Source: a virus. From it: a stretch of 64,000 bases of DNA. The DNA is taken from positions 652 through 64,651 of the IMG/VR virus record IMGVR_UViG_3300025736_000018. The stretch is one strand, 5' to 3'. The translations under genes and the position numbers were made by a program. Below the pieces are notes generated by a model, which saw only the letters and a list, made by a program, of their open reading frames with translations, was not told the DNA's origin and ran no database searches. Shown in pieces: positions 9,083-58,852 of this stretch (positions within the stretch are counted from its first letter, which is position 1; the number at the start of each line of letters is the position of its first letter).

Positions 9083-9456
9083 GGGGCTGTAATGGTTTCG
9101 ACAGAGATAGAGAAGATTGAATCGGCACATACCGTGGATAGTTTAACTCAATCACGTTAAAAAACGTTAAACAAAGCTTAAACGCAAACAATTTACAATT
9201 AGCAGCATAGTCTGCCGGTAATTAAGTATACTGTTTATTTCATTCAGTTGCTTTTGTATACCGTCATTAAAAATGAATAAGCTAGTTTGATGATCAACTA
9301 TAGCTAGTCGAAAACTTAAGTTATCTATGCTTTAATTAGTGGCAAGTCAGGCAAACGTTAAGGCGAATTAAAAATAATATAATTTGACTAAGTATGTAAG
9401 TAAGTTGACAGTTAGCTTGTTTTTGGACGTCGGTTCAATTCCGACCAGTTCCACCA
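9083..9456 (+). ncRNA. ssrA: tmRNA (SsrA), tag ANNLQLAA ending in UAG
   Basis: 5' GGGGCTGTAATGGTTTCGACAG; 3' GGACGTCGGTTCAATTCCGACCAGTTCCACCA (tRNA-Ala-like T-arm and CCA); internal frame GCA AAC AAT TTA CAA TTA GCA GCA TAG. Confidence 0.8.
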
Positions 9457-9543
9457 AATTATTAAAAAAGAGGTTTTAAGATAAAAATTAATATAACGAG
9501 AGTTAGTTTTTTAAGAACTATTGAAAATAGGGAGTAAAAAGAA

Positions 9544-9783
9544 ATGTTTCTTAAAAGAAGTTTTTATAGAATAATTACTGCAAAATCATTATCAGAACTC
9601 CAAAAGCTTGTTAATGATAAGTTAGAGAATGGCTGAGAATTAGTATTATACACTCCTTCATATTCAACTTATCATTATGATTATGATAGAAGATATGATT
9701 ATGTAAGAGAGATTGTTTTTAATTGTGATGATCAAGAAACATATCATATAATGAAAGATATACTTAATAACGAGGAGGTATAA
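9544..9783 (+). CDS. small DUF4177-like protein (paralog 3) with in-frame TGA
   Basis: LVNDKLENG-TGA-ELVLYTP aligns with LQDGWKL and KAGWKP of paralogs 1 and 2 (Trp by TGG there). Confidence 0.55.
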
Positions 9784-9845
9784 TTATGAAACTTTAAATG
9801 GAAATCAGGGTTGTATAGCAGTATTATTAATTATACAATGAACAC

Positions 9846-9920
9846 AGGCTCATAGTTCAATGGCTAGAATAAAGGTCTCCAAAGCCTTTGATGTGGGTTC
9901 GAATCCTACTGAGCCTGCCA
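9846..9920 (+). tRNA. tRNA-Trp (anticodon CCA)
   Basis: acceptor AGGCTCA/TGAGCCT, anticodon arm AAGGT-CTCCAAA-GCCTT, T-loop TTCGAAT, encoded CCA. Confidence 0.8.
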
Positions 9921-9981
9921 TTTCTTTTAATTTTTACTATTTTCTGAAAATTAACTATATTATAATTAGGAGGTATAGGTA

Positions 9982-10161
9982 ATGGATATTGTAGAAGAGA
10001 TAATGGAGCTTATAGAAAAGATTAGAGAATTAGACGGTTTAGCTTCTGGAGTATGGAAGACTGCTTTAGGAAATAATTGGCCTGTGGATTATGAGGAAAT
10101 AGCTAAATGTGAAATTGAAATTAAGACAAAAATATATGGTATAATAGAGTGTACTAATTAA
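9982..10161 (+). CDS. small hypothetical protein
   Basis: 59-aa ORF with GGAGG RBS. Confidence 0.35.
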   Translation: MDIVEEIMELIEKIRELDGLASGVWKTALGNNWPVDYEEIAKCEIEIKTKIYGIIECTN

Positions 10162-10173
10162 TTATATATATGT

Positions 10174-10248
10174 GCGCCTATACTCAACCGGTAAGAGGCT
10201 CGTCTGATACGCGAGTAGATGATAGTTCGACTCTATCTAGGCGTACCA
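10174..10248 (+). tRNA. tRNA-Ile (anticodon GAU)
   Basis: acceptor GCGCCTA/TAGGCGT, anticodon arm CTCGT-CTGATAC-GCGAG, T-arm GATAG-TTCGACT-CTATC, encoded CCA; D-stem weak. Confidence 0.7.
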
Positions 10249-10273
10249 ATAAAATTTAAAGGAATAAAAATAA

Positions 10274-10462
10274 ATGATAAAGAGTAAGAAAAAGCTAGAT
10301 ATATTTCTATATCTATTATTAAGAGATTGTGCAATTCCATGTGGTGAAGTCGAAAAATTAGTACAAATAGCAGGAGCAACTGATGATGAAGCAGAATTTT
10401 CCAATGATTATTTAGCAGGTTATGCTAAAGATATACGTAAAAGATTAGAAGAAGGAAAATAA
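10274..10462 (+). CDS. hypothetical protein
   Basis: 62-aa ORF. Confidence 0.4.
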   Translation: MIKSKKKLDIFLYLLLRDCAIPCGEVEKLVQIAGATDDEAEFSNDYLAGYAKDIRKRLEEGK

Positions 10463-10467
10463 AATAT

Positions 10468-10671
10468 ATGAATATTGTAGAAAAACATGCATATAGTGAA
10501 ATAAATAGAATAAGAGAGATTGAACGAGATATACTTGAGTTGCGAAAAAGACTTAGTATTAAAAATTGTTCGAGAGAATCTATTTGAGATTCAATTCAAA
10601 ATTTAGAAGATGAAATTTATGTTATGACAAAAGAAATGGTTGTTTCAATTCTTCAATTAAATGCTGAATAA
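10468..10671 (+). CDS. hypothetical protein (one in-frame TGA)
   Basis: 68-aa ORF continuous if TGA is Trp. Confidence 0.4.
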
Positions 10672-10792
10672 AGAAATATATATATGCGAAAAGTATTACA
10701 CTCACCAAAGATAGGAAGTATTAGTAATGAGAGCATCAGATGTGCAATCATTAAGATAAAGAGGAAAAAAAAGAGGAAAAAAGGAAGAACAA

Positions 10793-11398
10793 ATGAATAG
10801 AATTAATTTTAACAAGTCATTATTATACAATCTTGACACATCAGATTTTTGTAATAGAGAAAACGTAAATTACATTAAAGATTGACTTAGAGAAAATCGC
10901 AGTGGATTATTAATTACGAACAGACAAGTAGGAAAATCTCAAGCTTTGATTGAGCTTTTAGTTGAGGAGTCTAATTCATATTTATTGGCTTTTTCACAAG
11001 CTTCTGCAAGGAATTATTTTAATAAGATTGTAAATTTATATAATAAATATTGTTCATCTTTAATAGATTATGACCCTGAAGGGTTCAAAGAGTTTAAAAA
11101 AGATGTTAAAGAGAGAATAGTTCATATGGGTAGAAATTACCCAATTACAGCATTATCAGGACGACCAGTAATGCCAACTAAATCTTTTTGGAATAATCTT
11201 TATATTGATGAGTATTATTTTAACAAATGTAATAGTGAAAAATTTAAAGGTGCTGTATCAACAATGAAATTTCCGATGGAAATTAAAAAACTTCATGTTG
11301 ATTATAGATGTAGTGAAGAGGAATTAAAAATGACATACAGTGAAGAGCAATATAAAAAAGAGTATTCACTAGATTTTAGAGTAATAGAGGAAAACTAA
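10793..11398 (+). CDS. hypothetical protein with P-loop-like NRQVGKS (one in-frame TGA)
   Basis: ATG 10793 joins the 10946 ORF through KDW(TGA)LREN. Confidence 0.45.
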
Positions 11399-11465
11399 AA
11401 ATGAAATTTATTCAAAAGTGGAATAAGAAAAGAGAAAAATATTTAGGTAGGGTATAAAAAAGACT

Positions 11466-12224
11466 ATGAAAAACAAGAAGATTTTTATAATTAGACCAGT
11501 TAGGCGTACAAACGACGAAATCAATCGAGCAATTGAAGAGTTTAGAGAAGAGATGTATAATGAAGGAGTTGATGTTTATGATCCGCTGCTTTGTACTGAT
11601 CAAACAGTTAATGAGCTAGAAATCTGTTTACAGAATTCAAATGCAATTGAAGCGTGTGATGAGGTTTGGATGTGGTATGATAGAGGAAGTACTGGAAGTC
11701 ATTTTGATATTGGAGTAGCATTTGCAGCAAGAAAGCCGATTTATATAATTAATGATGTTAGCGATTTCGTCAATAGTGCAAGTAAAAACTTCATTAAGAT
11801 GATAGCTGATTATGATAGAATGCTAGACGGTGATCTCCTAAGTATTTATAGTTCAGGAGAATGGATAGAAGGAAAAGAAGAGCCTCACGTTTTACAAGAA
11901 GCTATAGATTTGTTTGAAGATGAAGTAAAAAGACTTCAAGCAAAACAAAATGAAGAAGAACTTCTTCGAAAAGAAGCTACTGATCAGTTAAAGTCAATGT
12001 TAGATGAAAACAATATTGTTGAAGAGGTGTATGATAGATTATTTGATGATGAGCGAATTGACATCGATATCTATATTAAACCTTTTAAAACCGCAGAGCA
12101 TATTGTAGTTGATTTTAGTGTAGCCCAGCCGGAAGAGTCTGAATCGATTATAAATCGTTGTAGAATAGAACCTCGATTGTCTTGGGATTTTGTATCTAAA
12201 ATAAAGGAGAACATAGATGAATAG
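11466..12224 (+). CDS. hypothetical protein, possibly a nucleoside 2-deoxyribosyltransferase-like fold
   Basis: 252-aa ORF; KIFIIRPVRRTNDE...VYDP pattern; weak. Confidence 0.3.
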   Translation: MKNKKIFIIRPVRRTNDEINRAIEEFREEMYNEGVDVYDPLLCTDQTVNELEICLQNSNAIEACDEVWMWYDRGSTGSHFDIGVAFAARKPIYIINDVSDFVNSASKNFIKMIADYDRMLDGDLLSIYSSGEWIEGKEEPHVLQEAIDLFEDEVKRLQAKQNEEELLRKEATDQLKSMLDENNIVEEVYDRLFDDERIDIDIYIKPFKTAEHIVVDFSVAQPEESESIINRCRIEPRLSWDFVSKIKENIDE

Positions 12225-12582
12225 TAAAGTAATAGAAGTATTGAATAAATATGCTGCTATAAAATGGCCAAAAGACTCAGAACCAACAGCTAATGAGAGA
12301 CTTGAAATACTATGGGAATGTGGAACACAATGTGCAAAACTCGATAGAGATCCTCATAGATGGTGGGATGAAATAACAGTAATAAAAGAGTTTAGAATTT
12401 CAAATGGTGAAATATATTATATTGGATATGGTTGGGCTGAAGCAAATAGAGATGAATCAATATTTGATCTAGGCTGGGAATTTGATGAAGATACTATTGA
12501 ATTTTACAAACCGTTTGAAGAAACTGTACTTAGTTACAAGATCATAGATATTAATAAGGTTGACGATACGCCAAAAGAATAA
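12217..12582 (+). CDS. hypothetical protein
   Basis: 121-aa ORF. Confidence 0.5.
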   Translation: MNSKVIEVLNKYAAIKWPKDSEPTANERLEILWECGTQCAKLDRDPHRWWDEITVIKEFRISNGEIYYIGYGWAEANRDESIFDLGWEFDEDTIEFYKPFEETVLSYKIIDINKVDDTPKE

Positions 12583-12591
12583 ATTATATAT

Positions 12592-12667
12592 GCCCGGCTA
12601 GCTCAACTGGAAGAGCATTTGAGTTACATTCAAAAGGTTATAGGTTCAATTCCTATGTCGGGTACCA
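12592..12667 (+). tRNA. tRNA-Val (anticodon UAC)
   Basis: acceptor GCCCGGC/GTCGGGT, D-arm GCTC-AACTGGAA-GAGC, anticodon arm TTTGA-GTTACAT-TCAAA, T-arm ATAGG-TTCAATT-CCTAT, encoded CCA. Confidence 0.8.
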
Positions 12668-16084: not shown

Positions 16085-16528
16085 ATGAATATAGCATTTG
16101 ATATACATGGTGTATTATCAGATGTACAAAATATAATTCCGGTGGTCAATGAATTATTGGCTGCCGGACATGATATTTATGTAATATCTGGTACACCTGT
16201 AGACGAGATGAAGGAAGAATTAGAGCAGAAGTATGGATATAGTTTAAGCATATTTAAAGACTTCTTCTCAGTTATTGATCATGTACGTAGAACAAGGCCA
16301 GAGGTTGATATTACAGTCAATTCTTATGGTTGGTGGATTCCTTCTGATGAAATGTGGTGGACAATCAAAGCTGAGATTTGTGAAGAGAACAACATTGATT
16401 TATTAATAGATGATAGTATAGAGTATATGCAAGGTTATCTTGAAGATAAATTCATTTGTTATAATCTAATTGAAAATAATGATATTTTGGACTTCATTAA
16501 AATAGCAATAGAGGAGATTAATAGATAA
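16085..16528 (+). CDS. hypothetical protein, possibly HAD-like hydrolase
   Basis: N-terminus MNIAFDIHGVLSD; weak. Confidence 0.3.
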   Translation: MNIAFDIHGVLSDVQNIIPVVNELLAAGHDIYVISGTPVDEMKEELEQKYGYSLSIFKDFFSVIDHVRRTRPEVDITVNSYGWWIPSDEMWWTIKAEICEENNIDLLIDDSIEYMQGYLEDKFICYNLIENNDILDFIKIAIEEINR

Positions 16529-16753: not shown

Positions 16754-17401
16754 ATGGAAAAAACATTAGTAATTGCAGTTGACTTACAAAATGACTTTAT
16801 GAATAAAAATGGAGCTTTATATGTTCCTGGAGCAGAAGATATTAAAGAAGAAGTAAATGACTTTATGTATCGAGCCATGCGAGCTCTTGATACGAATCAC
16901 AAAATATGGTATACAGCAGACTTACATGATTACGATGATGAAGAGATTTCAACACATCCAGATCTTACTAATACTTTTCCTCCACATTGTATTAGGAATA
17001 CTGAAGGATCGTGGCTTATTGATCATGCAACAGGAAATGAATATTCCTCAGAAGCAATACTTGAAGAATCTATGCCGCCGTTTGCTTCCGTATATTATAA
17101 AAACAAGTTTTCTGTATTTGAAGGTAATAGTGCATTTGAAGCTGATATTATAGATGATATGTACAATATCGATAAAATATTTATATTTGGAGTTGCTGGA
17201 GATATTTGTGTTAAGGGTGTGCTTGATGGAATGGTTCAATTAATTGAGTATGGCAGATCAGATTGCAGACAAATAGTTGTTCTTCTTGATTTAATTGCTA
17301 GCATAGACGATAAAAAGTTTATAAAGTATATTAAAAAACTCGTATATGATTATGAATATATTACAGTTGCGTTTTCTGAAGATGTTGTCTTCGAGATATA
17401 A
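16754..17401 (+). CDS. pncA: nicotinamidase/isochorismatase-family hydrolase (PncA-like)
   Basis: LVIAVDLQNDFMNKNGALYVPGA and catalytic-Cys region FIFGVAGDICVKGV. Confidence 0.65.
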   Translation: MEKTLVIAVDLQNDFMNKNGALYVPGAEDIKEEVNDFMYRAMRALDTNHKIWYTADLHDYDDEEISTHPDLTNTFPPHCIRNTEGSWLIDHATGNEYSSEAILEESMPPFASVYYKNKFSVFEGNSAFEADIIDDMYNIDKIFIFGVAGDICVKGVLDGMVQLIEYGRSDCRQIVVLLDLIASIDDKKFIKYIKKLVYDYEYITVAFSEDVVFEI

Positions 17402-17413
17402 AAATAAAATTTT

Positions 17414-17481
17414 TACTATTTTTTGTAATTATATTATATTATATATGTAGAAATTAATAAATGGAGGTTTATTAAAAAAAA
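17414..17481 (+). promoter_or_regulatory. reiterated promoter cassette (copy)
   Basis: TTACTATTTTTTGTAATTATATTATATTATAT then ATGGAGGTTTATT-ATG. Confidence 0.55.
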
Positions 17482-18102
17482 ATGAATGTATTTAAATTAT
17501 TTTATCGGGTGCCAGAGCATCCAAATGTTGAATACGCAGCAGGGATACATAATGAAAAAATAGACTATTCACATTATAGCAAGCTCAGGGATAGCTGGTT
17601 TGGTGAATGGTTGGACGAAAAAGGTATCGATTGCAAAACCTTAACAGAAGAGGAATGTGGAAAGCAGATACTTAATTTTTATAATGATACAATTGATCCA
17701 GCAAATCCTGATCCAAGAAGAATATTTGTTAGTGTTGAAGTAGCAGAAACCAAACCTAAAACTGGAAGGGTAATGTTTCATCAACATGAAGCTGAAATTA
17801 AATATACTCCTGGTAAAAATTGGGCAAGTAAAAAGTTTAAGTTAGAATTAAGCGACAAGAGACCTCTCTCCGGTGCAGAATATAATGCAGGTATTTACAC
17901 CTGCCCTGATTGTGGAAGTCATGTTACCGAAATAGATGCTGAAAATAACTCGCCAAATATAATTGGATTTAATTATCATTATGATGATGTAGTTGTGATT
18001 ATGCAATGTCCGTATTGCTTTTGTAAATACTTTCATCATATTGATGTTGCTTCTTATGAATCGTATAAAAGAATTAAAAAACATCATAAGGAGATTAAAT
18101 AA
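17482..18102 (+). CDS. hypothetical protein with C-terminal Zn-ribbon
   Basis: 206-aa ORF; CPDCG...CPYC. Confidence 0.5.
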   Translation: MNVFKLFYRVPEHPNVEYAAGIHNEKIDYSHYSKLRDSWFGEWLDEKGIDCKTLTEEECGKQILNFYNDTIDPANPDPRRIFVSVEVAETKPKTGRVMFHQHEAEIKYTPGKNWASKKFKLELSDKRPLSGAEYNAGIYTCPDCGSHVTEIDAENNSPNIIGFNYHYDDVVVIMQCPYCFCKYFHHIDVASYESYKRIKKHHKEIK

Positions 18103-19286
18103 TGAGTATTATTAATAGTATCCTAGATAACGACTTATATAAATTTACGATGCAACAATTCGTATTGCATAACTTTAATAATGTCGAGGTCGAATACGAC
18201 TTATCAATTCGTTCTGATGTTGACTTAAGATCGTATAAACTCGATATTGCTGTGGCAATAAGTAACCTACAATTTTTAAAGCTTACATCTGATGAAGATT
18301 GTTATCTTAGAAATTTAAGGTTCTTATCAGAAGATTATGTTGATTGGTTATATAACTTTAAATTTAATCCTGAGGAAGAAGTAAGAGTAACTGAGAAAGA
18401 TGGTCAACTTGCAATTACAATCAAAGGCTTATGGATTAATACTATATTATATGAAGTTCCTATACTTGCAATTATATCTGAAATTTATCATAAAAAAAAC
18501 GACTTAAAGGAGCAAAGTAATTGGTATCATACGACTGTTGAAGCGCGAAATCGTTTAGTTAAAAAGTATAATTATGCCGAAGATATTAGTTCAGATGGTT
18601 TTCATTTTGCAGATTTTGGTACAAGAAGACGACATAGTCGTGAAAATCAAGATAAAGTAATTTCGGAATTATATGGAATAAGTCCTGTAACGTTTGTTGG
18701 GACAAGTAATGTTCACTTTGCAATGAAGCATAGATTAACACCAATTGGTACAATGGCACATGAAGTAATAATGGCTGCACAGGCATTACTCCCACTACCT
18801 ACTCATCAGAAAGATATATTATATTTATGGGCAAAGGAATTTAAAGGCGATCTAGGAATAGCATTATCAGATACTCTTGGAAGTAAAAAATTCTTTGAAG
18901 ATTTTACAGCTGATTTAGCAAAAATGTTTGATGGAGTTAGACATGATAGTGGCGATCCTGAAGATTTTGCAAAAGAGACTATTATGCATTATAAAAAGCT
19001 AGGCATTGATCCGATGACAAAGACAATTGTATTCAGTGATTCGTTAGATTTAGTTAAAGCAAAAAGACTTTTTGATAAGTTTAAGAGTAAAATTAAAATA
19101 TCATTTGGTATAGGAACTAATCTCACTAATGATTGTGATGGAATAAAGCCATTGTCAATTGTAATTAAAATGCAAATGTGTAATGGAATGCCAGTTGTAA
19201 AAATATCAGATACACCTGAGAAGGCAATGTGTAGAAATAAAAATTATTTAGAATTTATGAAGGAGCATGTAAATGGAGAATCTTAG
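18102..19286 (+). CDS. pncB: nicotinate phosphoribosyltransferase (PncB/NAPRTase family)
   Basis: N-terminus ILDNDLYKFTMQQ and the DFGTRRR motif. Confidence 0.8.
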   Translation: MSIINSILDNDLYKFTMQQFVLHNFNNVEVEYDLSIRSDVDLRSYKLDIAVAISNLQFLKLTSDEDCYLRNLRFLSEDYVDWLYNFKFNPEEEVRVTEKDGQLAITIKGLWINTILYEVPILAIISEIYHKKNDLKEQSNWYHTTVEARNRLVKKYNYAEDISSDGFHFADFGTRRRHSRENQDKVISELYGISPVTFVGTSNVHFAMKHRLTPIGTMAHEVIMAAQALLPLPTHQKDILYLWAKEFKGDLGIALSDTLGSKKFFEDFTADLAKMFDGVRHDSGDPEDFAKETIMHYKKLGIDPMTKTIVFSDSLDLVKAKRLFDKFKSKIKISFGIGTNLTNDCDGIKPLSIVIKMQMCNGMPVVKISDTPEKAMCRNKNYLEFMKEHVNGES

Positions 19287-19630
19287 TATTACTATTAGAC
19301 AAGGCTACGGAGGTGATAGAATTATACTTTTTAATCATAGTTTATTTAAGTATAATTGTATTATGCATATCAATTCAGAGCTCAAAGCTGTTGTATGTGA
19401 AAAAGGAACCTTAAGAGCTATCGCATATAGGAATAAATAATATTTTAACACCACCCAGTACAGTAATAGTTGATGTGGTTTTTAAGTTTGAAAAGCTTCC
19501 TGAAACTCTATTTTCTGTATCTTTTTCTGGTACAAAAATAGATGTATGGAGAATAGATGACTCTCCAACACCACATTATGTTAAAAGTTATGACATAACT
19601 TAAAAATTAAAGAAAACGAGGAGTATATAG

Positions 19631-20479
19631 ATGTATAGTAAGGTAAACTATGGGCGAATTTTAAATGAAAATCGACCAATTAAAAAAGTAATTAACTTCC
19701 TAGAGAGAAAATTAGCAGACTCAGGAAAAAAGAATTACATAATTGGATATTCTGGAGGAATCGATTCCGCACTTGTTACAGTGTTGGCAGTAATGGCAGT
19801 TGGAAGTGATCATGTTTTTGCATATAAGCTTCCGTATTTCGAGCATGTAGGTAATTTAATACCTGCTGACGATTATCTTGATAGTCTTGGACTAGATGGA
19901 CATTATATTGAAATGAGCATTAAAGAAACGGTTGATTCGTTTTCAGAAAAGGACAACTATCGTAAAGGAAACATTATGGCAAGAATAAGGATGACACAAC
20001 TCTATAATTCAGCAGCAAGATTTAACGCTCTCGTTTTAAATACTTGTAATATGTCAGAAACACTTGTTGGCTATGAAACTAAATATGGTGACGCTGCTGG
20101 AGATATTGCTCCAATAGTTCATCTTACAAAGACTGAAGTTTGGAAATGGGGAGAGAAATTAGGACTACCAGCAGAGATTCTTAATAAAGTACCTACTGCA
20201 GGATTATGGGACGGACAAACTGATGAAGATGAGCTGGGATTTTTATATGCCGAACTTGATACTGTAATTGAACAATATCGTCATAATTTGACTAATATAG
20301 AGTTATATGAATGGATGGATGCAAGATGGGAAGACTCAACTTATTCATTGCCTGTTCATATTAAAACCTGGTTAAAAATTAGAAAGCTAAATAAAAATTC
20401 TCAGCATAAACTACATCCGATGTCACATTTTAATTGGTGGGAAGCTCAAGAAGATTGGGAAAGATATGGAAATTACTAA
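19631..20479 (+). CDS. nadE: NH3-dependent NAD+ synthetase (NadE)
   Basis: PP-loop IIGYSGGIDSAL; ETKYGDAAGDIAPI. Confidence 0.85.
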   Translation: MYSKVNYGRILNENRPIKKVINFLERKLADSGKKNYIIGYSGGIDSALVTVLAVMAVGSDHVFAYKLPYFEHVGNLIPADDYLDSLGLDGHYIEMSIKETVDSFSEKDNYRKGNIMARIRMTQLYNSAARFNALVLNTCNMSETLVGYETKYGDAAGDIAPIVHLTKTEVWKWGEKLGLPAEILNKVPTAGLWDGQTDEDELGFLYAELDTVIEQYRHNLTNIELYEWMDARWEDSTYSLPVHIKTWLKIRKLNKNSQHKLHPMSHFNWWEAQEDWERYGNY

Positions 20480-20508: not shown

Positions 20509-20697
20509 ATGAAAACACGCGAATTAGAAATTATAGTATATGGACTCTATAATGGCATCCAAAATATATGGATGAGTGGACCAGTTAGCTCTATTACAAT
20601 TGGTGAAACATTAACAATAAGAACCGGCGATAAGAATAATCTAATATTCAGAGCAGATAAAAATAATGCTGATGAATGGTCAGTGAGGTATTTATAA
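20509..20697 (+). CDS. hypothetical protein
   Basis: 62-aa ORF. Confidence 0.4.
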   Translation: MKTRELEIIVYGLYNGIQNIWMSGPVSSITIGETLTIRTGDKNNLIFRADKNNADEWSVRYL

Positions 20698-21677
20698 AAA
20701 TTATGGAAACTAGAAAAGTACCGACAGGACATATTTGTATAATTAATGGAGACTTAGGAAAGCCGCTTGAATTCTTATCAATTGGTGATTATGGAAAAGA
20801 GCAAAATGTTAAAGCTGAGTTTCTTGGATTAACTAAAGAAATTGAAGGTGTTTCAAATGGAAGTGTAATGCCATTAGAAGAGAAATGGGTTATAACAATT
20901 TCAACTCAATATGGCTGTTCAATGGGCTGTACATTTTGTGATGTACCTAAAGTTGGACCAGGTATTAACGCTACTAGTAATGATCTATTTAATCAGATTG
21001 AACAAGCGCTAATGCTACATCCAGAAGTTAAGCATACAAAAAGACTAAATATACATTATGCAAGAATGGGAGAACCAACATTTAATGCGGATGTACTATC
21101 ACATGCAAAGGTATTGAAGAAGATTACAAGACATTACTTAGGCGATAGTATAGTTCATCCAGTAATCTCAACCATGCTACCAAAAAATAATAGACGTTTA
21201 TATCAATTTATTTTAGAGTGGTGTTTCATTAAAAATACAACATATCTTGGAAATGCTGGATTACAATTTTCAATTAATTCAACATCAGATTTTCAAAGAA
21301 AAGAAATGTTTTCAGGAAGTGCATTAACATTAGAGGAGATTTCAACATTAGGCAATATGATGCCATATCCAATTGGTAGAAAATACGCTCTTAATTTTGC
21401 ATTAGCTGATGAGTATGAAATTGATGCTGCTAAACTTAGAACATTATTTAATCCTGATAAGTTTATGGTTAAAATAACCCCAATGCATTTAACAGATTCT
21501 TGTATAAAAAATAACATCAAAACAACCGGCGGATATGAATACTTTACACCATATAAGCAAATAGAAAGGGAATTGATTGAAGCCGGTTTTGATGTCATAG
21601 TTTTTATACCTTCGTTTGATGAAGATGAAAGTAAAATTACCTGTGGAAATGCTATATTAGCAGAAGGGAGAGTGTGA
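20676..21677 (+). CDS. radical SAM enzyme, RlmN/Cfr-like RNA methyltransferase
   Basis: CxxxCxxC motif in STQYGCSMGCTFCDVPKVG; C-terminal ITCGNAILAEG resembles the RlmN second-Cys region. Confidence 0.65.
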   Translation: MVSEVFIKIMETRKVPTGHICIINGDLGKPLEFLSIGDYGKEQNVKAEFLGLTKEIEGVSNGSVMPLEEKWVITISTQYGCSMGCTFCDVPKVGPGINATSNDLFNQIEQALMLHPEVKHTKRLNIHYARMGEPTFNADVLSHAKVLKKITRHYLGDSIVHPVISTMLPKNNRRLYQFILEWCFIKNTTYLGNAGLQFSINSTSDFQRKEMFSGSALTLEEISTLGNMMPYPIGRKYALNFALADEYEIDAAKLRTLFNPDKFMVKITPMHLTDSCIKNNIKTTGGYEYFTPYKQIERELIEAGFDVIVFIPSFDEDESKITCGNAILAEGRV

Positions 21678-21678
21678 A

Positions 21679-21852
21679 ATGTCTAAGATAAGAAATATTG
21701 TAGAATATGGTCCAAGTTGAAAGAAATCAAAATATATTATTGTTGATATAGACACTTCACATAGAGAACATCAATATAAGTTACGTTTAATTGAAGAGCA
21801 GCCAGATATTTGGCTTCCAGAATATTCCTTTAGAGTAATAGAGGAAAACTAA
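21679..21852 (+). CDS. small hypothetical protein (one in-frame TGA)
   Basis: 58 aa; C-terminus FRVIEEN* repeats the end of the 10793 gene. Confidence 0.35.
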
Positions 21853-22623: not shown

Positions 22624-23277
22624 ATGAAAATAATTAAACCAAGTTTTGAAATTGAATCGGAGATAGTTGGTTGAGCTCTACTGAAACATATTGAGAAGGC
22701 AGGTCGAACTGCATATAAAAGTGAAGATAAAATAACTGAAGACTCTGCAGCTAAGTTTGTTAAGATGATAATTGAAAGAGGTCACTTATCAGTATTAGAA
22801 CATTATTCTGTTACCGTAAGAGTAATTTGTGATAGAGGAGTAACACACGAAATAGTTAGACATAGATTAGCAAGCTACACACAGGAAAGCACTAGATATT
22901 GTAATTATAGTAAAAATAAATTTGGTAATGAATTAACGTTCATTGAACCTATATTTTGAAAAGAATCAACAGTAGACGATGCTAGCAAATATATGATTTG
23001 AGCAGATATGATGAGACATATTGAAAAAGCATATATCCGATTAGTCGAATTAGGTGCAAGTCCACAAGAAGCGAGAAGTGTACTCCCGAATTCATTGAAG
23101 ACAGAAATAGTTATGACGATGAATTTAAGAGAGTGGTTACATTTTTTTAAACTTAGAACTTCACTAGCAGCGCATCCGCAAATGAGAGAAATAGCGATTC
23201 CAATGTTAGAAGAGTTTAAAAAACAAATTCCAATAATATTTGATAGTCTTAATATAGTAAATCTTTTAGTAAGATAG
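22624..23277 (+). CDS. thyX: flavin-dependent thymidylate synthase ThyX (three in-frame TGA)
   Basis: ThyX signature RHRLASYTQESTRY; the 22765 and 23008 ORFs join in one frame when TGA is sense. Confidence 0.8.
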
Positions 23278-24235: not shown

Positions 24236-24496
24236 ATGACAAACCAAGAAATAGCGGTTGAAATTGCTCAATGGGCAAATAATGGTGACGCCAAGAACTT
24301 AGAGGATATCGAATACAGGAAAATAGGGGATTTTATTTCAGTGAGCTATACCAGTATTTCCACAAGGGTAACTATTGAGTATAATTTTTTATCTGATTAT
24401 ATGCTTGTATACTATTCTCTAAATTTAATTGAAACACCTCGTTACGGAATATTTAACGTAAGGAGAGTAGTAGAACTATTTAGGAGTATGAAATGA
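24236..24496 (+). CDS. hypothetical protein
   Basis: 86-aa ORF. Confidence 0.45.
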   Translation: MTNQEIAVEIAQWANNGDAKNLEDIEYRKIGDFISVSYTSISTRVTIEYNFLSDYMLVYYSLNLIETPRYGIFNVRRVVELFRSMK

Positions 24497-25695
24497 ACGG
24501 AGTAATATTTGAAAAAGATAGTGGAGTAAAACCAATCAAGCATTGGCTACCATTTAATGAAATAGAAGAAGGAGCATTACAACAGGCACGAAACTTAGCA
24601 TCTCTACCATTCATATTTAAACACGTAGCATTAATGCCGGACTGTCACCAAGGATATGGAATGCCGATCGGCGGAGTTATAGCGACTAGAAATGTGGTAA
24701 TTCCAAATGCAGTCGGTGTTGATATTGGTTGTGGAATGTGTGCTGTGAAAACACCATGGAAAACACATGAGATACCACGTAATGAAATATTACGTATTAT
24801 GGCTGAGATTCGTAAAAGAATACCACTTGGAAAAAATAGTCATAATAGTCCTCAGATAGATGCAATGGTAAAATTAATGAATGGTCGTACTGGATACGAT
24901 CTCGGGGAAATTAGCTTTCGTCGCTATGAAGCATCTATGACACAATTAGGAACAATGGGTGGTGGAAATCACTTCATTGAAATTCAGAAAGATAAAGAAG
25001 AGAATATTTGGGTAATGGTTCATTCTGGTTCACGTAACTTAGGTAAAAGAATCGCTGATTATTACAATAATATTGCTATTAAGAATAACAAAATCTGGCA
25101 TACGCAAATTCCTACAGAATATCAATTAGCATTCTTACCGTTTGGTACTGAATATGCTCAAAATTATCTTCGTGAAATGAACTTTGCAGTTGAGTATGCT
25201 TTTGCAAATAGAGCATTAATGATGGAAAGAATTAAAGAATCGTTTGATATTATTATGAGTTGGAAAACTATTGATTTATCTAGCATGATTAATATAGCTC
25301 ATAACTATGCTCAAATGGAGAATCACTTTGGCGAAAATGTTTTAGTTCATAGAAAGGGAGCCACTCTTGCGAGAACAGGAACTATAGGAATTATACCAGG
25401 CTCTCCAGGTACTCCATCGTATATAGTTAATGGACTCGGAAATCCAGATAGCTTTATGTCTTGCTCTCATGGAGCCGGCAGATTGATGTCAAGAACCAAA
25501 GCTCAAAATGAATTGAGCCTTAATGAGCAAATTAAAATATTAGATGATCAAGAAATCATTCATGGAATCAGACATGAAAGAGATTTAGATGAAGCACCTG
25601 GTGCTTATAAAGATATTAATAGTGTTATGTATAATCAGGAAGATCTTGTCAAGGTAGTTACTAAGTTGATGCCGCTAGCAGTAATAAAGGGGTAA
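24493..25695 (+). CDS. rtcB: RtcB RNA 3'-phosphate/5'-OH ligase
   Basis: MPDCHQGYG, VGVDIGCGM, GGGNHFIEIQ, HSGSRNLG, HRKGAT, CSHGAGR. Confidence 0.9.
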   Translation: MNGVIFEKDSGVKPIKHWLPFNEIEEGALQQARNLASLPFIFKHVALMPDCHQGYGMPIGGVIATRNVVIPNAVGVDIGCGMCAVKTPWKTHEIPRNEILRIMAEIRKRIPLGKNSHNSPQIDAMVKLMNGRTGYDLGEISFRRYEASMTQLGTMGGGNHFIEIQKDKEENIWVMVHSGSRNLGKRIADYYNNIAIKNNKIWHTQIPTEYQLAFLPFGTEYAQNYLREMNFAVEYAFANRALMMERIKESFDIIMSWKTIDLSSMINIAHNYAQMENHFGENVLVHRKGATLARTGTIGIIPGSPGTPSYIVNGLGNPDSFMSCSHGAGRLMSRTKAQNELSLNEQIKILDDQEIIHGIRHERDLDEAPGAYKDINSVMYNQEDLVKVVTKLMPLAVIKG

Positions 25696-25784: not shown

Positions 25785-26066
25785 ATGAAAAAAATTTATA
25801 GAGTATGTGCAATGGAAGTACTTAGTATGGACATATATTACAGATATGAATCTTATGATAAACCAGCAGCACATGAATATGTATTGAGATGTTATAGAAG
25901 ATGTAAGAATATGAATCGTGATGAGAACGTAATGAATGATAATCTTACTCTAAAAGAAGCAATCAAATGGTTTAACTTTTATAACACTGAGCGCGAATTT
26001 GGTGGAGCAATTATTCAGGTTTATAATGAAGATACTAAAATCTGGGAGGACGAAAATGGGAAGTAA
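25785..26066 (+). CDS. hypothetical protein
   Basis: ATG after the leader. Confidence 0.5.
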   Translation: MKKIYRVCAMEVLSMDIYYRYESYDKPAAHEYVLRCYRRCKNMNRDENVMNDNLTLKEAIKWFNFYNTEREFGGAIIQVYNEDTKIWEDENGK

Positions 26067-26463
26067 AATTTATAAAGAGCCGTTTAGGGAATTGATTAAG
26101 AAATATCGAAGTATTACTTTGAAGCAGATTGAAGATGATATTGACTCTAATCCTATTGATTCCGCTCTTAGTGAAGCTCGTGTATTGTCGTCTATAATGT
26201 TTACTCCGTATAGGCTTACTGGCTTTGGTGGAAGTGGTTGTATATTATGTAGAGCGTTTAATGGCAATTGCATGTTCTGCTATGGAGCGTATCATGAAGG
26301 TTTTGGAGATTATAATGGCTTAGGATGTCTACATTATGGACATGAAGAGACATATTATAAAATATCTCATGCTCGTGATGCTGAAGACTTACTCAACGCT
26401 TTCAATGAAAGAGCTAACCATATAGAAAAGTGGTTAAAAGGATTCAAAGATGGAAGAGATTAA
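26056..26463 (+). CDS. Cys-rich protein, KEPF...ELIKKYRSIT family (paralog 1)
   Basis: conserved N-terminus KEPFRELIKKYRSIT and C-terminus LNAFNERANHIEKWL. Confidence 0.5.
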   Translation: MGSKIYKEPFRELIKKYRSITLKQIEDDIDSNPIDSALSEARVLSSIMFTPYRLTGFGGSGCILCRAFNGNCMFCYGAYHEGFGDYNGLGCLHYGHEETYYKISHARDAEDLLNAFNERANHIEKWLKGFKDGRD

Positions 26464-26833
26464 TAAAGAACCATTTAAAGAATTGATTAAGAAATATCGA
26501 AGTATTACTTCGGAGCAAATTGAAAAAATTAGTAAATGTGAATTTTGCATGGGAGATGTTGCAGCTGAACTAACTGGATGGGGCTGTACGCTAACTTGTA
26601 TTTTATGTTTAACCTTTAAAGAAGAATGTTCAAAATGTTATGGTATTGAATGTGGAGTAAATCGCAAGAAATATGCCTGTGTGGGAGGGGTGCATGAAAA
26701 AACATATGCTAATATTGGAGAAGCTCAGACATTTAACGAACTTTTCAATGCTTTTAATGAAAGAGCTAATCATATAGAAGAATGGTTAGAGGGATTTGAC
26801 GATGAGTTTGAAGATGAGAAAACTAAGGAGTAG
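26450..26833 (+). CDS. Cys-rich protein, same family (paralog 2)
   Basis: KEPFKELIKKYRSIT ... FNAFNERANHIEEWL. Confidence 0.5.
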   Translation: MEEINKEPFKELIKKYRSITSEQIEKISKCEFCMGDVAAELTGWGCTLTCILCLTFKEECSKCYGIECGVNRKKYACVGGVHEKTYANIGEAQTFNELFNAFNERANHIEEWLEGFDDEFEDEKTKE

Positions 26834-26835
26834 AA

Positions 26836-27276
26836 ATGCACAAAAAAATAAAAGAGGCTTTTCAAAGTCTATTATCTAGTTATGAAAATATTTCTATAGA
26901 AGACATCAAAGTATATGAAGATGAATTTAAGCGATATCGCGATTCAGATATAACAAAAAGATCACCTTATTTACCAGATAAATTCGGCAGATATGTAATG
27001 AAAAAAAAATTTGGATTAGGAACTGATGATTTTATATTGTGCTGGACCGCTTGGGAAGTCGCTAGAAATTGCTTTAATACAATTCATTTTGATAAAAGAC
27101 ATGTATGTAAATTTTGTTTCGGAAATTTAGGAGGATGTGTTGATAAGAGCTTAGACGTAACAGCGCATAACATTCACGTTTCTGAAACTCCGGCAGAGTT
27201 GCTTGGTAATATTAAAGAGAGAGTTATAGTAATTAAAAAATGGCTAAAGGAGCACGGATATGAGTCAGCAGAGTAA
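26836..27276 (+). CDS. Cys-rich protein, divergent member of the same family (paralog 3)
   Basis: shared C-terminal pattern IKERVIVIKKWL and Cys spacing. Confidence 0.4.
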   Translation: MHKKIKEAFQSLLSSYENISIEDIKVYEDEFKRYRDSDITKRSPYLPDKFGRYVMKKKFGLGTDDFILCWTAWEVARNCFNTIHFDKRHVCKFCFGNLGGCVDKSLDVTAHNIHVSETPAELLGNIKERVIVIKKWLKEHGYESAE

Positions 27277-28272: not shown

Positions 28273-28656
28273 ATGGAAATTAATAAAAAGCCTTTTTTAG
28301 AATTGATTAAAAAGTATCGAAGTATTACTATAGCTGAAATTCAAGCTATTAAAGATTCTGGAGTCAGCGGATTTAATATCATTGCAATGCATTTAACAGG
28401 ATTTGGAGGAAGTACATCTTGTATATTATGTAGAGCATTTGATCACCGCTGTAAATATTGTTACGGAATAGAGACTTATTTTAATGAAGTCATTATGAAA
28501 GAGCACAGAGCACAATTCGGTTGTCTACATAATGATCATGAAAAGACATATTATAGAATTAAAAATGCGGGAACTGTAGACGACTTACTCAATGCTTTTC
28601 AAGCACGAGTAGATCACATTGAAAGGTGGTTGGAAAAATTTGAAGAAGAAAAATAA
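28273..28656 (+). CDS. Cys-rich protein, same family (paralog 4)
   Basis: KKPFLELIKKYRSIT ... LNAFQARVDHIERWL. Confidence 0.5.
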   Translation: MEINKKPFLELIKKYRSITIAEIQAIKDSGVSGFNIIAMHLTGFGGSTSCILCRAFDHRCKYCYGIETYFNEVIMKEHRAQFGCLHNDHEKTYYRIKNAGTVDDLLNAFQARVDHIERWLEKFEEEK

Positions 28657-39040: not shown

Positions 39041-39117
39041 ATTAAAGCTGTAACTTATTATGAGAGTTTGTATGAGTGATTGGTTGACTAAATAGCTAAA
39101 TTTTTATAATAAATAAC

Positions 39118-39209
39118 TTACTATTTTTGCCTTTTCTTTTATATTATCATTGTAGTATAAGAAAGGGCATTATTTTATTATAATTAAAAGAAAGAAGGAA
39201 AATAAATTT
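39118..39209 (+). promoter_or_regulatory. reiterated promoter cassette (degenerate copy)
   Basis: CTTACTATTTTTGCCTTTTCTTTTATATTATCAT ... AAGGAAAATAAATTT-ATG. Confidence 0.4.
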
Positions 39210-40010
39210 ATGCAAATATCACACGAATCACCGTTATGCTTATTAGAAGAGAGTAGAAAATATAATGATTATGATTATGCTCTAGTTCATCTATTTGATA
39301 GTAATGGCAAATATTATAATTTTTTTGAAGAGTCATTGAAATTAGGAAGACGCGTTATTTTAGATAATAGTATATTTGAACTTGGTACCGCTTTTGATGC
39401 AGAAGAGTTTTCACAATGGATTCACACATTAAATCCGACTGATTATATAGTTCCAGACGTTTTAGAGGATTGTGATGGAACTATTGCACAGTTTGAGAGT
39501 TGGATAGAGAATCATGGAGATCTACCAGGAAATAAAATAGGAGTAGTCCATGGAAAGACATATGAAGAAATGGTTAAGTGTTATCAATATATGGAACGAA
39601 ATGCTGATAAAATAGCTTTTAATTTTGTTGATAAAGTGTATGATGATTTTTGCATGCAAGGAGATATTGGACTTGATTTTGGTAGAATGACTGGTAGAAT
39701 GGATTTGATCCAAAAAATGGTTGAAGATGGTATCATTAATACAAATATAAAGCATCACATATTAGGTTGTGTATTACCTCAAGCAGGTAAGTTTTACAAA
39801 CAATTTGATTGGATAGAATCCGTTGATACATCAAACCCTATCATTCACGGTATACTAAATATTAAATATCAAGAACAAAAAGGCTTATTTACAAAGAATA
39901 AAATAAAAATGGTTGATATCTTTGATAAAAAAGTTGATAGAGAACAATGGAATGACATACAATATAACATTGAACAATTCAGAAAGATTTGGAGTATAAA
40001 TGAACATTAA
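39210..40010 (+). CDS. hypothetical protein; candidate TGT/DpdA-like 7-deazaguanine transglycosylase
   Basis: sits between QueC and FolE2; ILDNSIFELG loosely resembles the TGT-family LDSGGFQ motif. Confidence 0.3.
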   Translation: MQISHESPLCLLEESRKYNDYDYALVHLFDSNGKYYNFFEESLKLGRRVILDNSIFELGTAFDAEEFSQWIHTLNPTDYIVPDVLEDCDGTIAQFESWIENHGDLPGNKIGVVHGKTYEEMVKCYQYMERNADKIAFNFVDKVYDDFCMQGDIGLDFGRMTGRMDLIQKMVEDGIINTNIKHHILGCVLPQAGKFYKQFDWIESVDTSNPIIHGILNIKYQEQKGLFTKNKIKMVDIFDKKVDREQWNDIQYNIEQFRKIWSINEH

Positions 40011-40833
40011 TGATATAAAACTACTTAATAATGATACTGTATTTATGATGACCTGTGGGAAGGTTAAATATCATTTTGAATATGATGTGCCGTTACATAA
40101 ACTTTACAAAGGAGCATTTCATAATGCAAGACAAGATTTTATAAATTTAGTCGCGGGTAAAAATAATTACTACTACGTCACACCATCAGGTCCAGGGATT
40201 GTTTCTGCAACAACATTGTGTGGTTATTATGATATGATAACGCCTAATTGTAAATTAATCGATGAAACTTTTATAATCAAACATAGAGAAAATGCATATA
40301 AACATTCTCCAATTCTTAAAACTGCAAAAAATGTATATTATATTGGTGACATTAGATATTTTACTTTTTTACAAAAAGTTTTTTATGATAAAAATATTAT
40401 TATGATTTTTAATGAAAAATCAGGTATGGGGACTCAAATAGGGCTTTTAAGAAGGTTTGTAAATTATTATAATAAGCCAACATATTTTAAACATTTAAAA
40501 ATACAAGATGACAATAAAATTATAATTCTTTATAAGAGAAATAAAGTAGAATTTCTTAATGTCTTTACAAAAAAAGATAATTTATATATTAATGATGTTG
40601 AGATAAAACCACATACATATATTAATAAATTTTTGAAAAATAATAAAATAGACGTGGCAAAATACATACCACGTTCTAATTCAAGAATATTATTATCAAT
40701 AGTTAGTAAAATAATTAATCCAGTTTTTGGCTGTAACTGGGTAAAGGAAGAAATTAAATTTGACGATAAAATTGATTATTATTTAAACAAATACTTCAAT
40801 AAAAATATTGTTAAATTATTAAAGGAAACATAA
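40000..40833 (+). CDS. hypothetical protein
   Basis: 277-aa ORF. Confidence 0.5.
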   Translation: MNINDIKLLNNDTVFMMTCGKVKYHFEYDVPLHKLYKGAFHNARQDFINLVAGKNNYYYVTPSGPGIVSATTLCGYYDMITPNCKLIDETFIIKHRENAYKHSPILKTAKNVYYIGDIRYFTFLQKVFYDKNIIMIFNEKSGMGTQIGLLRRFVNYYNKPTYFKHLKIQDDNKIIILYKRNKVEFLNVFTKKDNLYINDVEIKPHTYINKFLKNNKIDVAKYIPRSNSRILLSIVSKIINPVFGCNWVKEEIKFDDKIDYYLNKYFNKNIVKLLKET

Positions 40834-41361
40834 ATGAGAATAGCATTATCCGGTGCCCAGAGTGTTGGAAAATCTACAATATTGAAGGCAATGAAAAAAT
40901 TGCCTGAATTTAGTAATTACGAATTTGTAGAAGAAATTGTCAGAAATTTACATAAAAAATATGGAATTCAAATTAATGAACAAGGAAACGGAGACACTCA
41001 GTTGATGATTGCTAACGCTCATTATTTTAACGGATTCAAAAAGAATGTAGTTCTGGATAGGTGTATATTGGATTGTCTTGTTTACACTCACTTATTGGAA
41101 GATAACATTGAATATTGGATTTTTAACTATATACATAATCTATGGGAAAGGGAAATGGAAAAGATTGATTACGTCTTTTACTTTCCACCAGAGTTCAAAA
41201 TAGTTGATGATGGTTTCCGGAGTTTAGATGAAGAGTTTCAACTAAAGACTCATGAAGTTTTTCACAACTATATTGGTCGAAATAATGTAACCAATGTACA
41301 TACAATTATTGGAACGGTAGAGGAAAGAATGAAAAAAATAAAAGATATAATAGGAGTATAG
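40834..41361 (+). CDS. P-loop NTPase/kinase (AAA_28, NadR-kinase-like)
   Basis: Walker A IALSGAQSVGKSTIL. Confidence 0.45.
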   Translation: MRIALSGAQSVGKSTILKAMKKLPEFSNYEFVEEIVRNLHKKYGIQINEQGNGDTQLMIANAHYFNGFKKNVVLDRCILDCLVYTHLLEDNIEYWIFNYIHNLWEREMEKIDYVFYFPPEFKIVDDGFRSLDEEFQLKTHEVFHNYIGRNNVTNVHTIIGTVEERMKKIKDIIGV

Positions 41362-41367
41362 AATTAA

Positions 41368-42318
41368 ATGAGTTTACCCGACGTACAACAAAACACAACT
41401 GGATTTAAAAAGCTTCCAATAGAGAAAGTTGGAGTGAGAGGAATCAAAGTTCCCTTTCATATATTCCAGAAAGGTAATTCAAAAAGCTTCAGTACAATAG
41501 CAACAATTTCAAGCTACTGTAATCTTGTAGAAGATGTTAAAGGGATAAATATGTCTCGCATTAGCAGAGCAATTAATGAAGTGTTGCAGAGAAATAAAGA
41601 TGGATTTACAAATTTAAATGATTTTGTATATGCGCTTCAAGAGGCTCATGGAGCAACTGATATTTATATTAAGGCAAATTTTGAATATTTATATGATACA
41701 TTATCTCCAATTGAAAAGGTATCGTCAATAGAGCCGGTCAATATTACATTTGAGAGTAAACTAAAAGATGATAAATTATTCAACTACATTACAGTTAAAA
41801 CTACTGAGATGTCATTATGTCCTTGTAGCAAAGAAATGTCATTATTAAAAAATAACCTGACAATGACTGAGAGTTTACTTATACAACATGCTCAATTTCC
41901 TCCGGTATTACTTAATAAAATAAACAATGCTGGCTTTGGAGCACATAATCAAAAATCTACAATTGAGGTTACATTTGAATTTATAGAAGGAAGAACAATG
42001 TGAATCGAAGATATAATGGAAATTATTAGAGAAAATGTATCATCTCCTACATGATCAACTCTTAAAAGAGGAGACGAGAAATATGTAACTGAAAGGTCTT
42101 ATATGGGTGGGTATTATGATGAGAATAAGAAATTTGTAGATACTGGCGGTGGTCCAATGTTTGTAGAAGACATTGTTAGAAATATAGCTTTTGAATTAGA
42201 TAAAGAATTAGATAACAGAATATTAGACTATTCTATTATAGTTAACAATCATGAATCTATTCATTCAGACGATATAATGGCTACTGCAATAATGACAGCA
42301 GGGCGAGAATTAAAATAA
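41368..42318 (+). CDS. folE2: GTP cyclohydrolase I type 2 (FolE2/MptA-like; two in-frame TGA)
   Basis: LPDVQ...IEKVGVRGIKVP, MSLCPCSKEMS, C-terminal HESIHSDDIMATA; the 41368 and 42103 ORFs share one frame. Confidence 0.6.
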
Positions 42319-53321: not shown

Positions 53322-53331
53322 GTTTTAAAAA

Positions 53332-56881: not shown

Positions 56882-56903
56882 AAAAAGAGAATTAAAAAAG
56901 AAA

Positions 56904-57617: not shown

Positions 57618-57626
57618 AATTAAACT

Positions 57627-58133: not shown

Positions 58134-58161
58134 ATTACTATTTTTAAAGGAAAGCTTATAT

Positions 58162-58402: not shown

Positions 58403-58414
58403 AAAGAGAATTAA

Positions 58415-58613: not shown

Positions 58614-58631
58614 AAGAAGGAAGAAAAGAAG

Positions 58632-58847: not shown

Positions 58848-58852
58848 ATAAA

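Follow-up and report, generated by a model that had tools for sequence, protein, structure and literature searches.

A phage gene cluster predicted to encode a PncA-type nicotinamidase, PncB and NadE, with no NaMN adenylyltransferase recognised in the surrounding sequence

The DNA analysed here, which we refer to as the window, is a 64 kb stretch from a large phage of low GC in whose genome TGA encodes Trp. The sequence examined consisted of the window and 8.7 kb upstream of it, which together are part of a genome of 176 kb or more; among public contigs with these genes the longest has 176,279 bp, and the size class treated by Li et al. (2024) is >200 kb. Three genes, for a PncA-like hydrolase, PncB and NadE, are tightly packed on the + strand at the positions where the initial annotation had placed them, and none of them contains a TGA codon. 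The identities proposed for them were borne out by Pfam and NCBIfam profiles, by solved relatives and by conserved residues. A scan of the 14.4–22 kb region for promoters and terminators gave no enrichment over shuffled sequences.

The first gene of the trio (16754..17401, + strand) encodes a protein of 215 aa that we predict to be a PncA-type nicotinamidase, an enzyme that converts nicotinamide to nicotinate and NH3. The product scores barely over the cut-off of the Pfam Isochorismatase family PF00857 (29.8 bits; cut-off 27) and far under that of the NCBIfam nicotinamidase equivalog PRK11609 (30.7 against 174), and it belongs to a divergent phage subfamily. Its top solved relatives are Mycobacterium tuberculosis PncA (3PL1, 2e-10) and yeast Pnc1 (2H0R, 7e-10), and several of its homologues carry the JGI name nicotinamidase/pyrazinamidase. 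The initial annotation had linked the PncA-like identity to the catalytic Cys/Asp/Lys triad, and alignment located this triad at D10/K116/C152, invariant across 31 aligned homologues, as are the residues of the metal site, D56/H58/H78. D10 and C152 align with D8 and C138 of the M. tuberculosis enzyme, K116 aligns with the Lys that serves in catalysis in 5ZN8, a Lys of the short-loop type, and D56, H58 and H78 correspond to M. tuberculosis D49, H51 and H71. An Asp/His/His metal site sets nicotinamidases apart from other isochorismatase-like enzymes.

The second gene (18102..19286, + strand) encodes a protein of 394 aa with both domains of nicotinate phosphoribosyltransferase (Pfam NAPRTase_N, 113 bits; NAPRTase, 230 bits). 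It matches the equivalog TIGR01514 with 436 bits (cut-off 269.55) over residues 3–390 and NCBIfam NF003704 with 485 bits (cut-off 379). On the strength of these equivalog-level matches the product is predicted to be a true PncB and not an enzyme of the NadV/NAMPT type, which had been named initially as the alternative. PncB forms NaMN from nicotinate, PRPP and ATP.

The third gene (19631..20479, + strand) encodes a 282-aa protein whose profile scores are well over the curated cut-off (TIGR00552, 186 bits against 63.65; Pfam NAD_synthase, 188 bits), as expected from its initial identification as an NAD+ synthetase. The PP-loop motif SGGIDS is seen in its sequence, and Pfam and NCBIfam profiles detected no glutaminase domain. 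We classify the predicted enzyme as a single-domain, NH3-dependent NadE, the reaction of which produces NAD+ from NaAD, ATP and NH3. Its best solved relative is that of Pyrococcus horikoshii (2E18, 7.6e-45), followed by that of Francisella (3FIU, 3.2e-34), an enzyme described as an NMN synthetase in PMC3376133; NaAD is the presumed substrate in this case.

Two neighbouring ORFs had been described initially as a Zn-ribbon protein between pncA and pncB and a HAD-like gene upstream, and both descriptions proved correct. The ORF at 17482..18102 (+ strand) encodes a protein of 206 aa in which two small phage modules are fused, an N module at residues ~19–87 and a C module at ~118–204, the latter being a 4-Cys Zn ribbon. 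Its stop overlaps the start codon of pncB, and the ORF is, judged from this arrangement, translationally coupled to pncB. The product of 16085..16528 (+ strand) is a cap-less HAD-fold protein in which an invariant D-x-H replaces the usual D-x-D, and it may be a putative accessory phosphatase. We considered whether the N module and the Zn ribbon are functionally tied to the NAD genes and regard this as not established: the modules adjoin NUDIX or PncA only in the close relatives L010, L011 and L012, and the neighbour of their more distant homologues is a gene for a radical SAM protein or for an ATP-dependent ligase. A radical SAM gene at 20676 was likewise rejected as a member of the cluster, as it shows no relationship to the genes of this kind that lie near the homologues in L001 and L013. 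The Zn-ribbon fusion and the HAD-fold product are lineage-specific neighbours and not the absent enzymes of the pathway.

The enzyme that would connect PncB with NadE, a NaMN adenylyltransferase producing NaAD, had not been recognised initially, and wider searches gave the same result. Neither the 64 kb window nor the 8.7 kb preceding it contained a NadD, NadM or NadR adenylyltransferase. Pfam searches that covered almost every ORF of the window revealed no CTP_transf_like, NUDIX or NMN transporter domain, and the sole HxGH motif present belongs to a small Cys-rich protein. A profile built from 46 phage NMNAT genes retrieved nothing from the six-frame translation of the window (best E 0.1), nor did tblastn. 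The cluster therefore falls short of the full Preiss-Handler set in the definition of Li et al. (2024), NadD/NadM being absent from the window and from the 8.7 kb upstream of it.

The initial annotation had suggested that one of the unknown neighbours might fill this step and that a nucleotidyltransferase fold might be found in the 17482 and 16085 products, and neither suggestion held. The two proteins are a two-module fusion and a HAD fold, respectively, and each gave a probability of at most 1% when compared by hhalign with the phage NMNAT profile. We also considered the ORF at 40000–40833, which adjoins a gene for an AAA_28 protein, as a divergent NMNAT that could form a split NadR with that protein. 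It gave weak signals to phage NMNAT by tblastn and hmmsearch (E 0.2); hhalign assigned it 0.3%, it has no HxGH motif, and we rejected it.

To place the arrangement among other viral loci, we assembled a census of 27 dereplicated IMG/VR loci in which a span of 10 kb holds PncA, PncB and NadE, taken as found in IMG/VR, so that prophage or host contamination may be among them. An adenylyltransferase is present in 18 of the 27, usually inside the cluster, and a frequent order is PncA-PncB-NadE-NMNAT-Nudix. The other nine, the window included, are without an NMNAT or HxGH-motif gene; L001, with contiguous NadE-PncA-PncB, is an example of this type. Relatives of the phage carry mosaic islands of NAD genes, such as NADAR, HAD-like, NUDIX, PncA, PnuC, NadR and PncB in L016, PncA, NadE and NadD in L020, and Tpt1, NUDIX, PncA, Zn ribbon and PncB in L010. 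The Sinorhizobium phage Phosso has annotated NadE, PncB and NMNAT genes, and an adjoining unnamed hydrolase matches the PncA profile.

The identities of the three enzymes support the earlier proposal of a Preiss-Handler-type (deamidated) route from nicotinamide. The novelty attributed to it was, on the other hand, overestimated: Li et al. (2024, Microbiome; PMC11662467) had described Preiss-Handler clusters in jumbo phages, for example pncB-nadD-nadE in Kuafu_71, and Phosso and the frequent complete IMG/VR modules also precede it. The gene set is thus already known in large phages, and the window provides one more example and not a new pathway. Like the "NAD-jumbo phages", Phosso and the IMG/VR modules, it comes from a large phage, has clustered pncB and nadE together with pncA, follows the deamidated route and is known from genes alone. 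It differs from them in that NadD/NMNAT and Nudix are absent from the window, a Zn-ribbon ORF splits pncA from pncB, and TGA encodes Trp. The three enzyme families, with their catalytic residues kept, are the same as in the bacterial PncA-PncB salvage of Escherichia coli and M. tuberculosis, but here a phage carries the genes, and the visible set lacks the NadD step.

The phage NAD+ pathways that have been demonstrated by experiment are NARP1, NARP2 and NARP3, and the cluster is none of these. NARP2 (Nampt and Nmnat; NadV/NatV of Vibrio phage KVP40) resembles it as a phage-coded route from nicotinamide through a mononucleotide to NAD+, but NARP2 is amidated, takes two steps (Nam to NMN to NAD+) and includes its own adenylyltransferase. 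In the window, a PncB equivalog takes the place of NadV, PncA and NadE are needed and the adenylyltransferase is absent; the Nampt (NadV) and Nmnat pair was not found there with NCBIfam, Pfam or the NMNAT profile. NARP1 (Adps and Namat) and NARP1-AP, which adds the Macro-domain phosphatase Adpp, are similar in rebuilding NAD+ from cleavage products, and NARP1-AP is a precedent for a phosphatase-type accessory gene beside such a pathway. NARP1, however, reuses ADP-ribose, whereas the window has no ADPR-handling gene and its phosphatase-fold neighbour is of the HAD type and not a Macro domain. Pfam searches of nearly all ORFs identified no PRPP-synthetase-like domain, and the only phosphoribosyltransferase is the PncB equivalog. 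NARP3 consists of PnuC and a bifunctional NadR (Sci Adv 2026, PMC13464706), both of which occur in L016 beside the same PncA, HAD-like and PncB genes. In the window, Pfam detected neither an NMN_transporter nor an NMNAT domain, which leaves just a stand-alone AAA_28 protein 20 kb from the cluster.

We think it probable that the three enzymes constitute a reduced, deamidated NAD+ salvage module that relies on host NadD. PncA would deamidate nicotinamide to nicotinate, which PncB would join with PRPP, at the expense of ATP, to make NaMN. The conversion of NaMN to NaAD would be provided by the host through its NadD, or by a gene in another part of the phage genome, and NadE would then amidate NaAD to NAD+ with free ammonia. 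The infected cell would be expected to rebuild NAD+ from nicotinamide more quickly. The sequence shows which three enzymes are encoded and that the window has no adenylyltransferase; the dependence on host NadD, like any effect on NAD+ levels, we infer.

What such a module would be for is less clear, and one possibility, somewhat less likely than not in our view, is a general auxiliary metabolic role unconnected with defence, in which NAD+ would be topped up for replication and NAD-using enzymes or in a host whose own NAD synthesis is poor. The trio resides among host-like housekeeping genes, the window also coding for ThyX, RtcB, a CCA-adding enzyme, tRNAs, tmRNA, que genes, GroEL and ClpP, and NadE occurs on its own in cyanophages and Bacillus phage G. 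Moreover, 174 jumbo phages carry NAD synthesis genes together with many NAD-consuming enzymes and would complement host pathways (Li et al. 2024, PMC11662467). Against a metabolic role, no strongly NAD-consuming enzyme, such as an NAD-dependent ligase or an ADP-ribosyltransferase, was found in the window. The role is also not separable by sequence from counter-defence, and both may hold together.

NAD+ is a central resource contested by bacteria and phages, and the module may plausibly contribute to counter-defence. NAD+-cleaving defence enzymes also release nicotinamide, on which the first enzyme of the trio would act. That the cluster is dedicated to this function in the manner of the NARPs, rebuilding NAD+ by way of host NadD from nicotinamide freed by Sir2, TIR, SEFIR and DSR effectors, seems to us somewhat unlikely. 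NAD+ reconstitution is established for other phage enzyme sets (NARP1, NARP2 and NARP3), relatives pair PncA with the ADPR-handling genes NUDIX, NADAR and Tpt1, and nine of the 27 loci share the trio without NadD. However, phage Preiss-Handler sets are known from genome surveys alone, and the route is longer and costlier in ATP than NARP1 or NARP2 and needs a host enzyme besides. In addition, the window contains no ADPR-recycling gene, and the trio's neighbours within it are tRNA, RNA-repair and nucleotide genes, known anti-defence genes not being among them. If the route raised NAD+ in infected cells, it would constitute a fourth reconstitution route, one dependent on a host enzyme, and would account for the omission of the adenylyltransferase from about one-third of such phage clusters.

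A more far-reaching version, which we consider doubtful, is that the NadD-less trio is a selected, recurrent phage design and not a decayed one, which would feed the essential NadD of the host from both sides and beat NAD-depleting defence, with the D-x-H HAD-fold and Zn-ribbon proteins of this lineage as new accessory or regulatory parts. Taken as it is, the finding contributes an example from a phage in which TGA encodes Trp and a rough frequency of the NadD-less arrangement, and it opens no new question.

Another scenario is that the NadE protein is a Francisella-type NMN synthetase, converting NaMN to NMN for an NMN adenylyltransferase, and that the AAA_28 protein (40834..41361, + strand; Pfam AAA_28, 60 bits) is a nicotinamide riboside kinase. 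We think that this is improbable. It is true that Francisella 3FIU, described as an NMN synthetase (PMC3376133), is the second-best solved relative, and that the AAA_28 protein is weakly similar to NadR kinase domains (3.5e-4 with the Lactococcus lactis domain 6GYE; BLASTP E 0.013 with NadR of a relative). The best relative, however, is the archaeal 2E18, and the M. jannaschii enzyme of the same group is an NaAD-specific NAD synthetase without NMN synthetase activity (PMC3376133); an adenylyltransferase would still be absent. Furthermore, the best PHROG match of the AAA_28 protein is "thymidylate kinase" (phrog_2107, 6e-30), ahead of the NadR-type phrog_3462 (4e-13). Its gene is flanked by QueC and FolE2 inside a queD/queE/queC/folE2 (7-deazaguanine) cluster 20 kb from the NAD genes, and we therefore do not assign it to NAD metabolism. 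The initial description of a NadR-kinase-like P-loop protein thus stands as to the P-loop, while the likeness to NadR is weak and no tie to NAD emerged.

Least credible is the idea that the pathway is self-sufficient through a novel type of NaMN adenylyltransferase encoded at 17482, 16085 or 40000. In its favour, the coupling of the 17482 ORF to pncB and the position of its C module, kept in L010, could be cited; the profile comparisons described above have already largely refuted it.

We also inspected the 344-nt spacer between pncB and nadE for a decayed nadD and discarded this idea, as the spacer showed no similarity, no Rfam match and no unusual RNA folding (z −1.2). It does contain an ORF of 55 aa (19273..19440, + strand), which is called as a gene in public annotations.

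The gene set recognised in the initial annotation, namely a PncA-like protein (16754-17401), PncB (18102-19286) and NadE (19631-20479), was confirmed by profile scores, solved relatives and conserved residues. PncB scored 436 with TIGR01514 against an NCBIfam equivalog cut-off of 269.55, and both NAPRTase domains were found; judged by these matches, it is not the NadV/NAMPT-type enzyme that had been considered as an alternative. NadE, predicted to be a single-domain NH3-dependent NAD synthetase, scored 186 with TIGR00552 (cut-off 63.65) and has P. horikoshii 2E18 as its best solved relative. The profile scores of the PncA-like protein were weak (Pfam, 29.8 against 27; NCBIfam, 30.7 against 174); among solved structures, M. 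tuberculosis PncA and yeast Pnc1 matched it best. Loss of the Cys/Asp/Lys triad had been a concern, and alignment of 31 homologues placed the catalytic residues D10/K116/C152, as well as the metal ligands D56/H58/H78, in invariant columns. We accept the protein as a putative divergent nicotinamidase.

No adenylyltransferase accompanies these genes in the window by any of the searches used. CTP_transf_like, NUDIX and NMN transporter domains were not found in a Pfam scan that covered almost every code-4 ORF of 75 aa or more, concatenated for searching (DnaE and GroEL, identified by eye, were left out). The single HxGH motif across all frames sits in a small Cys-rich protein. With a profile made from 46 phage NMNAT genes there was no match in the six-frame translation of the window (best E 0.1), tblastn against the window for NMNAT returned nothing, and the 8.7 kb of upstream sequence taken from a 106.5 kb contig were also negative for an adenylyltransferase.

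The proposal that a gene of unknown function next to the set fills the NadD step was rejected, as the 17482-18102 product consists of two small phage modules and the 16085-16528 product has a HAD fold. A word-indexed search with the former found no match besides itself. By HMMER, in a scan that took in 1.8 billion representatives, the N part (about residues 19-87) and the C part (about 118-204) matched distinct families of free-standing proteins some 90 aa long, the C-part family having a conserved CPxC...CPxCFxKxYxH Zn ribbon. The closest relative, viral locus L010, reads Tpt1, NUDIX, PncA, C module, PncB; farther homologues adjoin unrelated genes, so that a functional link with NAD metabolism is not established. 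Phosphatases of the HAD fold normally carry Asp-x-Asp. The family of the 16085-16528 protein and its homologues P0026-P0030 has an invariant Asp-x-His (DIHGV), pointing to altered chemistry or to a role other than that of a phosphatase.

The P-loop protein at 40834, previously described as NadR-kinase-like, is not counted in the set here. It belongs to AAA_28 (60 bits); its top PHROG carries the annotation thymidylate kinase, with a NadR-type PHROG scoring lower, and it matched the kinase domain of L. lactis NadR with an E of 3.5e-4. Its gene is flanked by those of QueC and FolE2, some 20 kb away from the NAD set, in a 7-deazaguanine (preQ0-type) cluster (36683-42318) that also holds QueD/PTPS, radical-SAM QueE, a dUTPase-like gene and two ORFs without assigned function (39210-40010 and 40000-40833); the cluster probably serves DNA or tRNA base modification. 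The ORF directly upstream of the P-loop protein was ruled out as an NMNAT.

Complete salvage or Preiss-Handler pathways have been described in 174 jumbo phages, among them a pncB-nadD-nadE cluster (Li et al. 2024, PMC11662467). The cultured Sinorhizobium phage Phosso has annotated NadE, PncB, MutT and NMNAT genes and an unnamed hydrolase matching the PncA profile. A nucleoside 2-deoxyribosyltransferase gene adjoins its NAD cluster; in the window, a 252-aa ORF (11466-12224) has a weak match to that family (20.6 bits, below cut-off), likewise marked as weak in public annotation. Agrobacterium phage Atu_ph07 has annotated PncB and ADP-ribose pyrophosphatase genes, and unannotated ORFs near these match the PncA and NMNAT profiles. 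A search of IMG/VR with the PncA alignment yielded 80 loci, which were taken as recorded, annotated over flanks of up to 10 kb with locally built profiles, and dereplicated at 80% PncA identity into 61 clusters. PncB and NadE lay within 10 kb of PncA in 27 of the 61. An NMNAT-family gene was also present in 18 of these 27, typically in the order PncA-PncB-NadE-NMNAT-Nudix; in the other nine (the window and viral loci L001, L026, L030, L033, L034, L074, L087 and L090) neither an NMNAT-family gene nor an HxGH-motif ORF was found with these profiles in the 10-kb flanks. The window therefore represents a common phage module in reduced form, and this NMNAT-less PncA-PncB-NadE form recurs among the viral loci. 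Related phages carry mosaic NAD islands (L016, 1900-7989; L020, 10001-13194; L021, 3519-9627; L010, 74-2376) with varying combinations of NADAR, HAD-like, NUDIX, PncA, PnuC, NadR, PncB, NadE, NadD and Tpt1 genes, together with a macro-like ORF assigned by eye alone. In L016, the NARP3 pair (PnuC and NadR) occurs together with PncA and PncB.

The interpretation first given to the window is thus partly supported: the enzymes and the Preiss-Handler-type route stand, whereas a substitute NadD among the unknown genes does not. Most likely, PncA would convert nicotinamide to nicotinate and PncB nicotinate to NaMN, host NadD would form NaAD, and NadE would complete NAD+; the NH3-dependent NadE could in principle draw on the ammonia that PncA sets free. 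The enzymes differ from those of the experimentally proven phage NAD+ reconstitution routes NARP1, NARP2, NARP3 and NARP1-AP. A counter-defence role is plausible because Sir2/TIR-type NADases yield nicotinamide, and the data fit a general metabolic role equally well. That NadE is instead a Francisella-type NMN synthetase appears less likely, because P. horikoshii NadE, the solved protein closest to it, comes from an archaeon and the assayed archaeal enzyme, that of M. jannaschii, is specific for NaAD and has no detectable NMN synthetase activity (PMC3376133).

The source of the window is a large phage. Its 64 kb are about 30% G+C, with nearly every gene on the + strand, and are rich in small ORFs without known family, alongside PHROG matches. 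Protein-level relatives are found in huge phages; PncB shares 41-44% identity with the uncultured phage records LR756500, LR756501, LR756503 and LR756511, and genes identical to those of the window are present on many metagenome contigs, which reach 176 kb. Among the genes checked, the closest phage relative belongs to a radical SAM gene (20676-21686; phrog_24834, 2.7e-143), whose product is 64% identical to a protein of Bacteroides phage Versailles (58 kb), a similarity that may point to a host related to Bacteroidota. Nine tRNA genes and a full-length tmRNA (9083-9456; tag ANNLQLAA; Rfam 121 bits) form an array at 1606-12667. An RNA repair/maturation set (6086-7252, 24493-25695, 32764-34251 and 35001-35444) comprises RNA ligase (PHA02142 OB fold / RNA_ligase), RtcB, an HD-domain CCA-adding enzyme, and a cREC_REC cyclic-phosphate-processing receiver domain. 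Four Cys-rich paralogues, 127-146 aa long (26026-27276 and 28273-28656), for which no family match was found, have the motifs EPFxELIKKYRSIT and NAFNERANHIExWL in common, as seen in the translations. A sugar-modifying block (51813-63074) contains two GT4 glycosyltransferases, a GT2, an RfbH-like 3-dehydrase and an NAD-dependent epimerase, with GroEL (53332-54981) and ClpP (56276-56881) embedded in it.

This block has the heaviest TGA codon use in the window, where TGA is a sense codon, most likely for Trp; genes were therefore re-called under code 4. Read as sense, TGA merges the 51.7-63 kb region into long ORFs. ThyX (22624-23277) has three TGAs in frame, and two TGAs of the RfbH-like dehydrase (60006-61163) align with conserved Trp of 3BCX. 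The TGA share of Trp codons climbs from 0% at 0-8 kb to 68% at 56-64 kb. No tRNA with a TCA anticodon was found in the window despite this recoding. A tRNA with anticodon CTA (4378-4452) would read TAG, and yet 24 of the 119 called genes, pncB among them, stop at TAG. The coordinates of the NAD genes hold, since none has a TGA and all terminate with TAA or TAG; together with the HAD-like gene these genes use TGG for all 22 Trp codons and are thus readable in the standard code.
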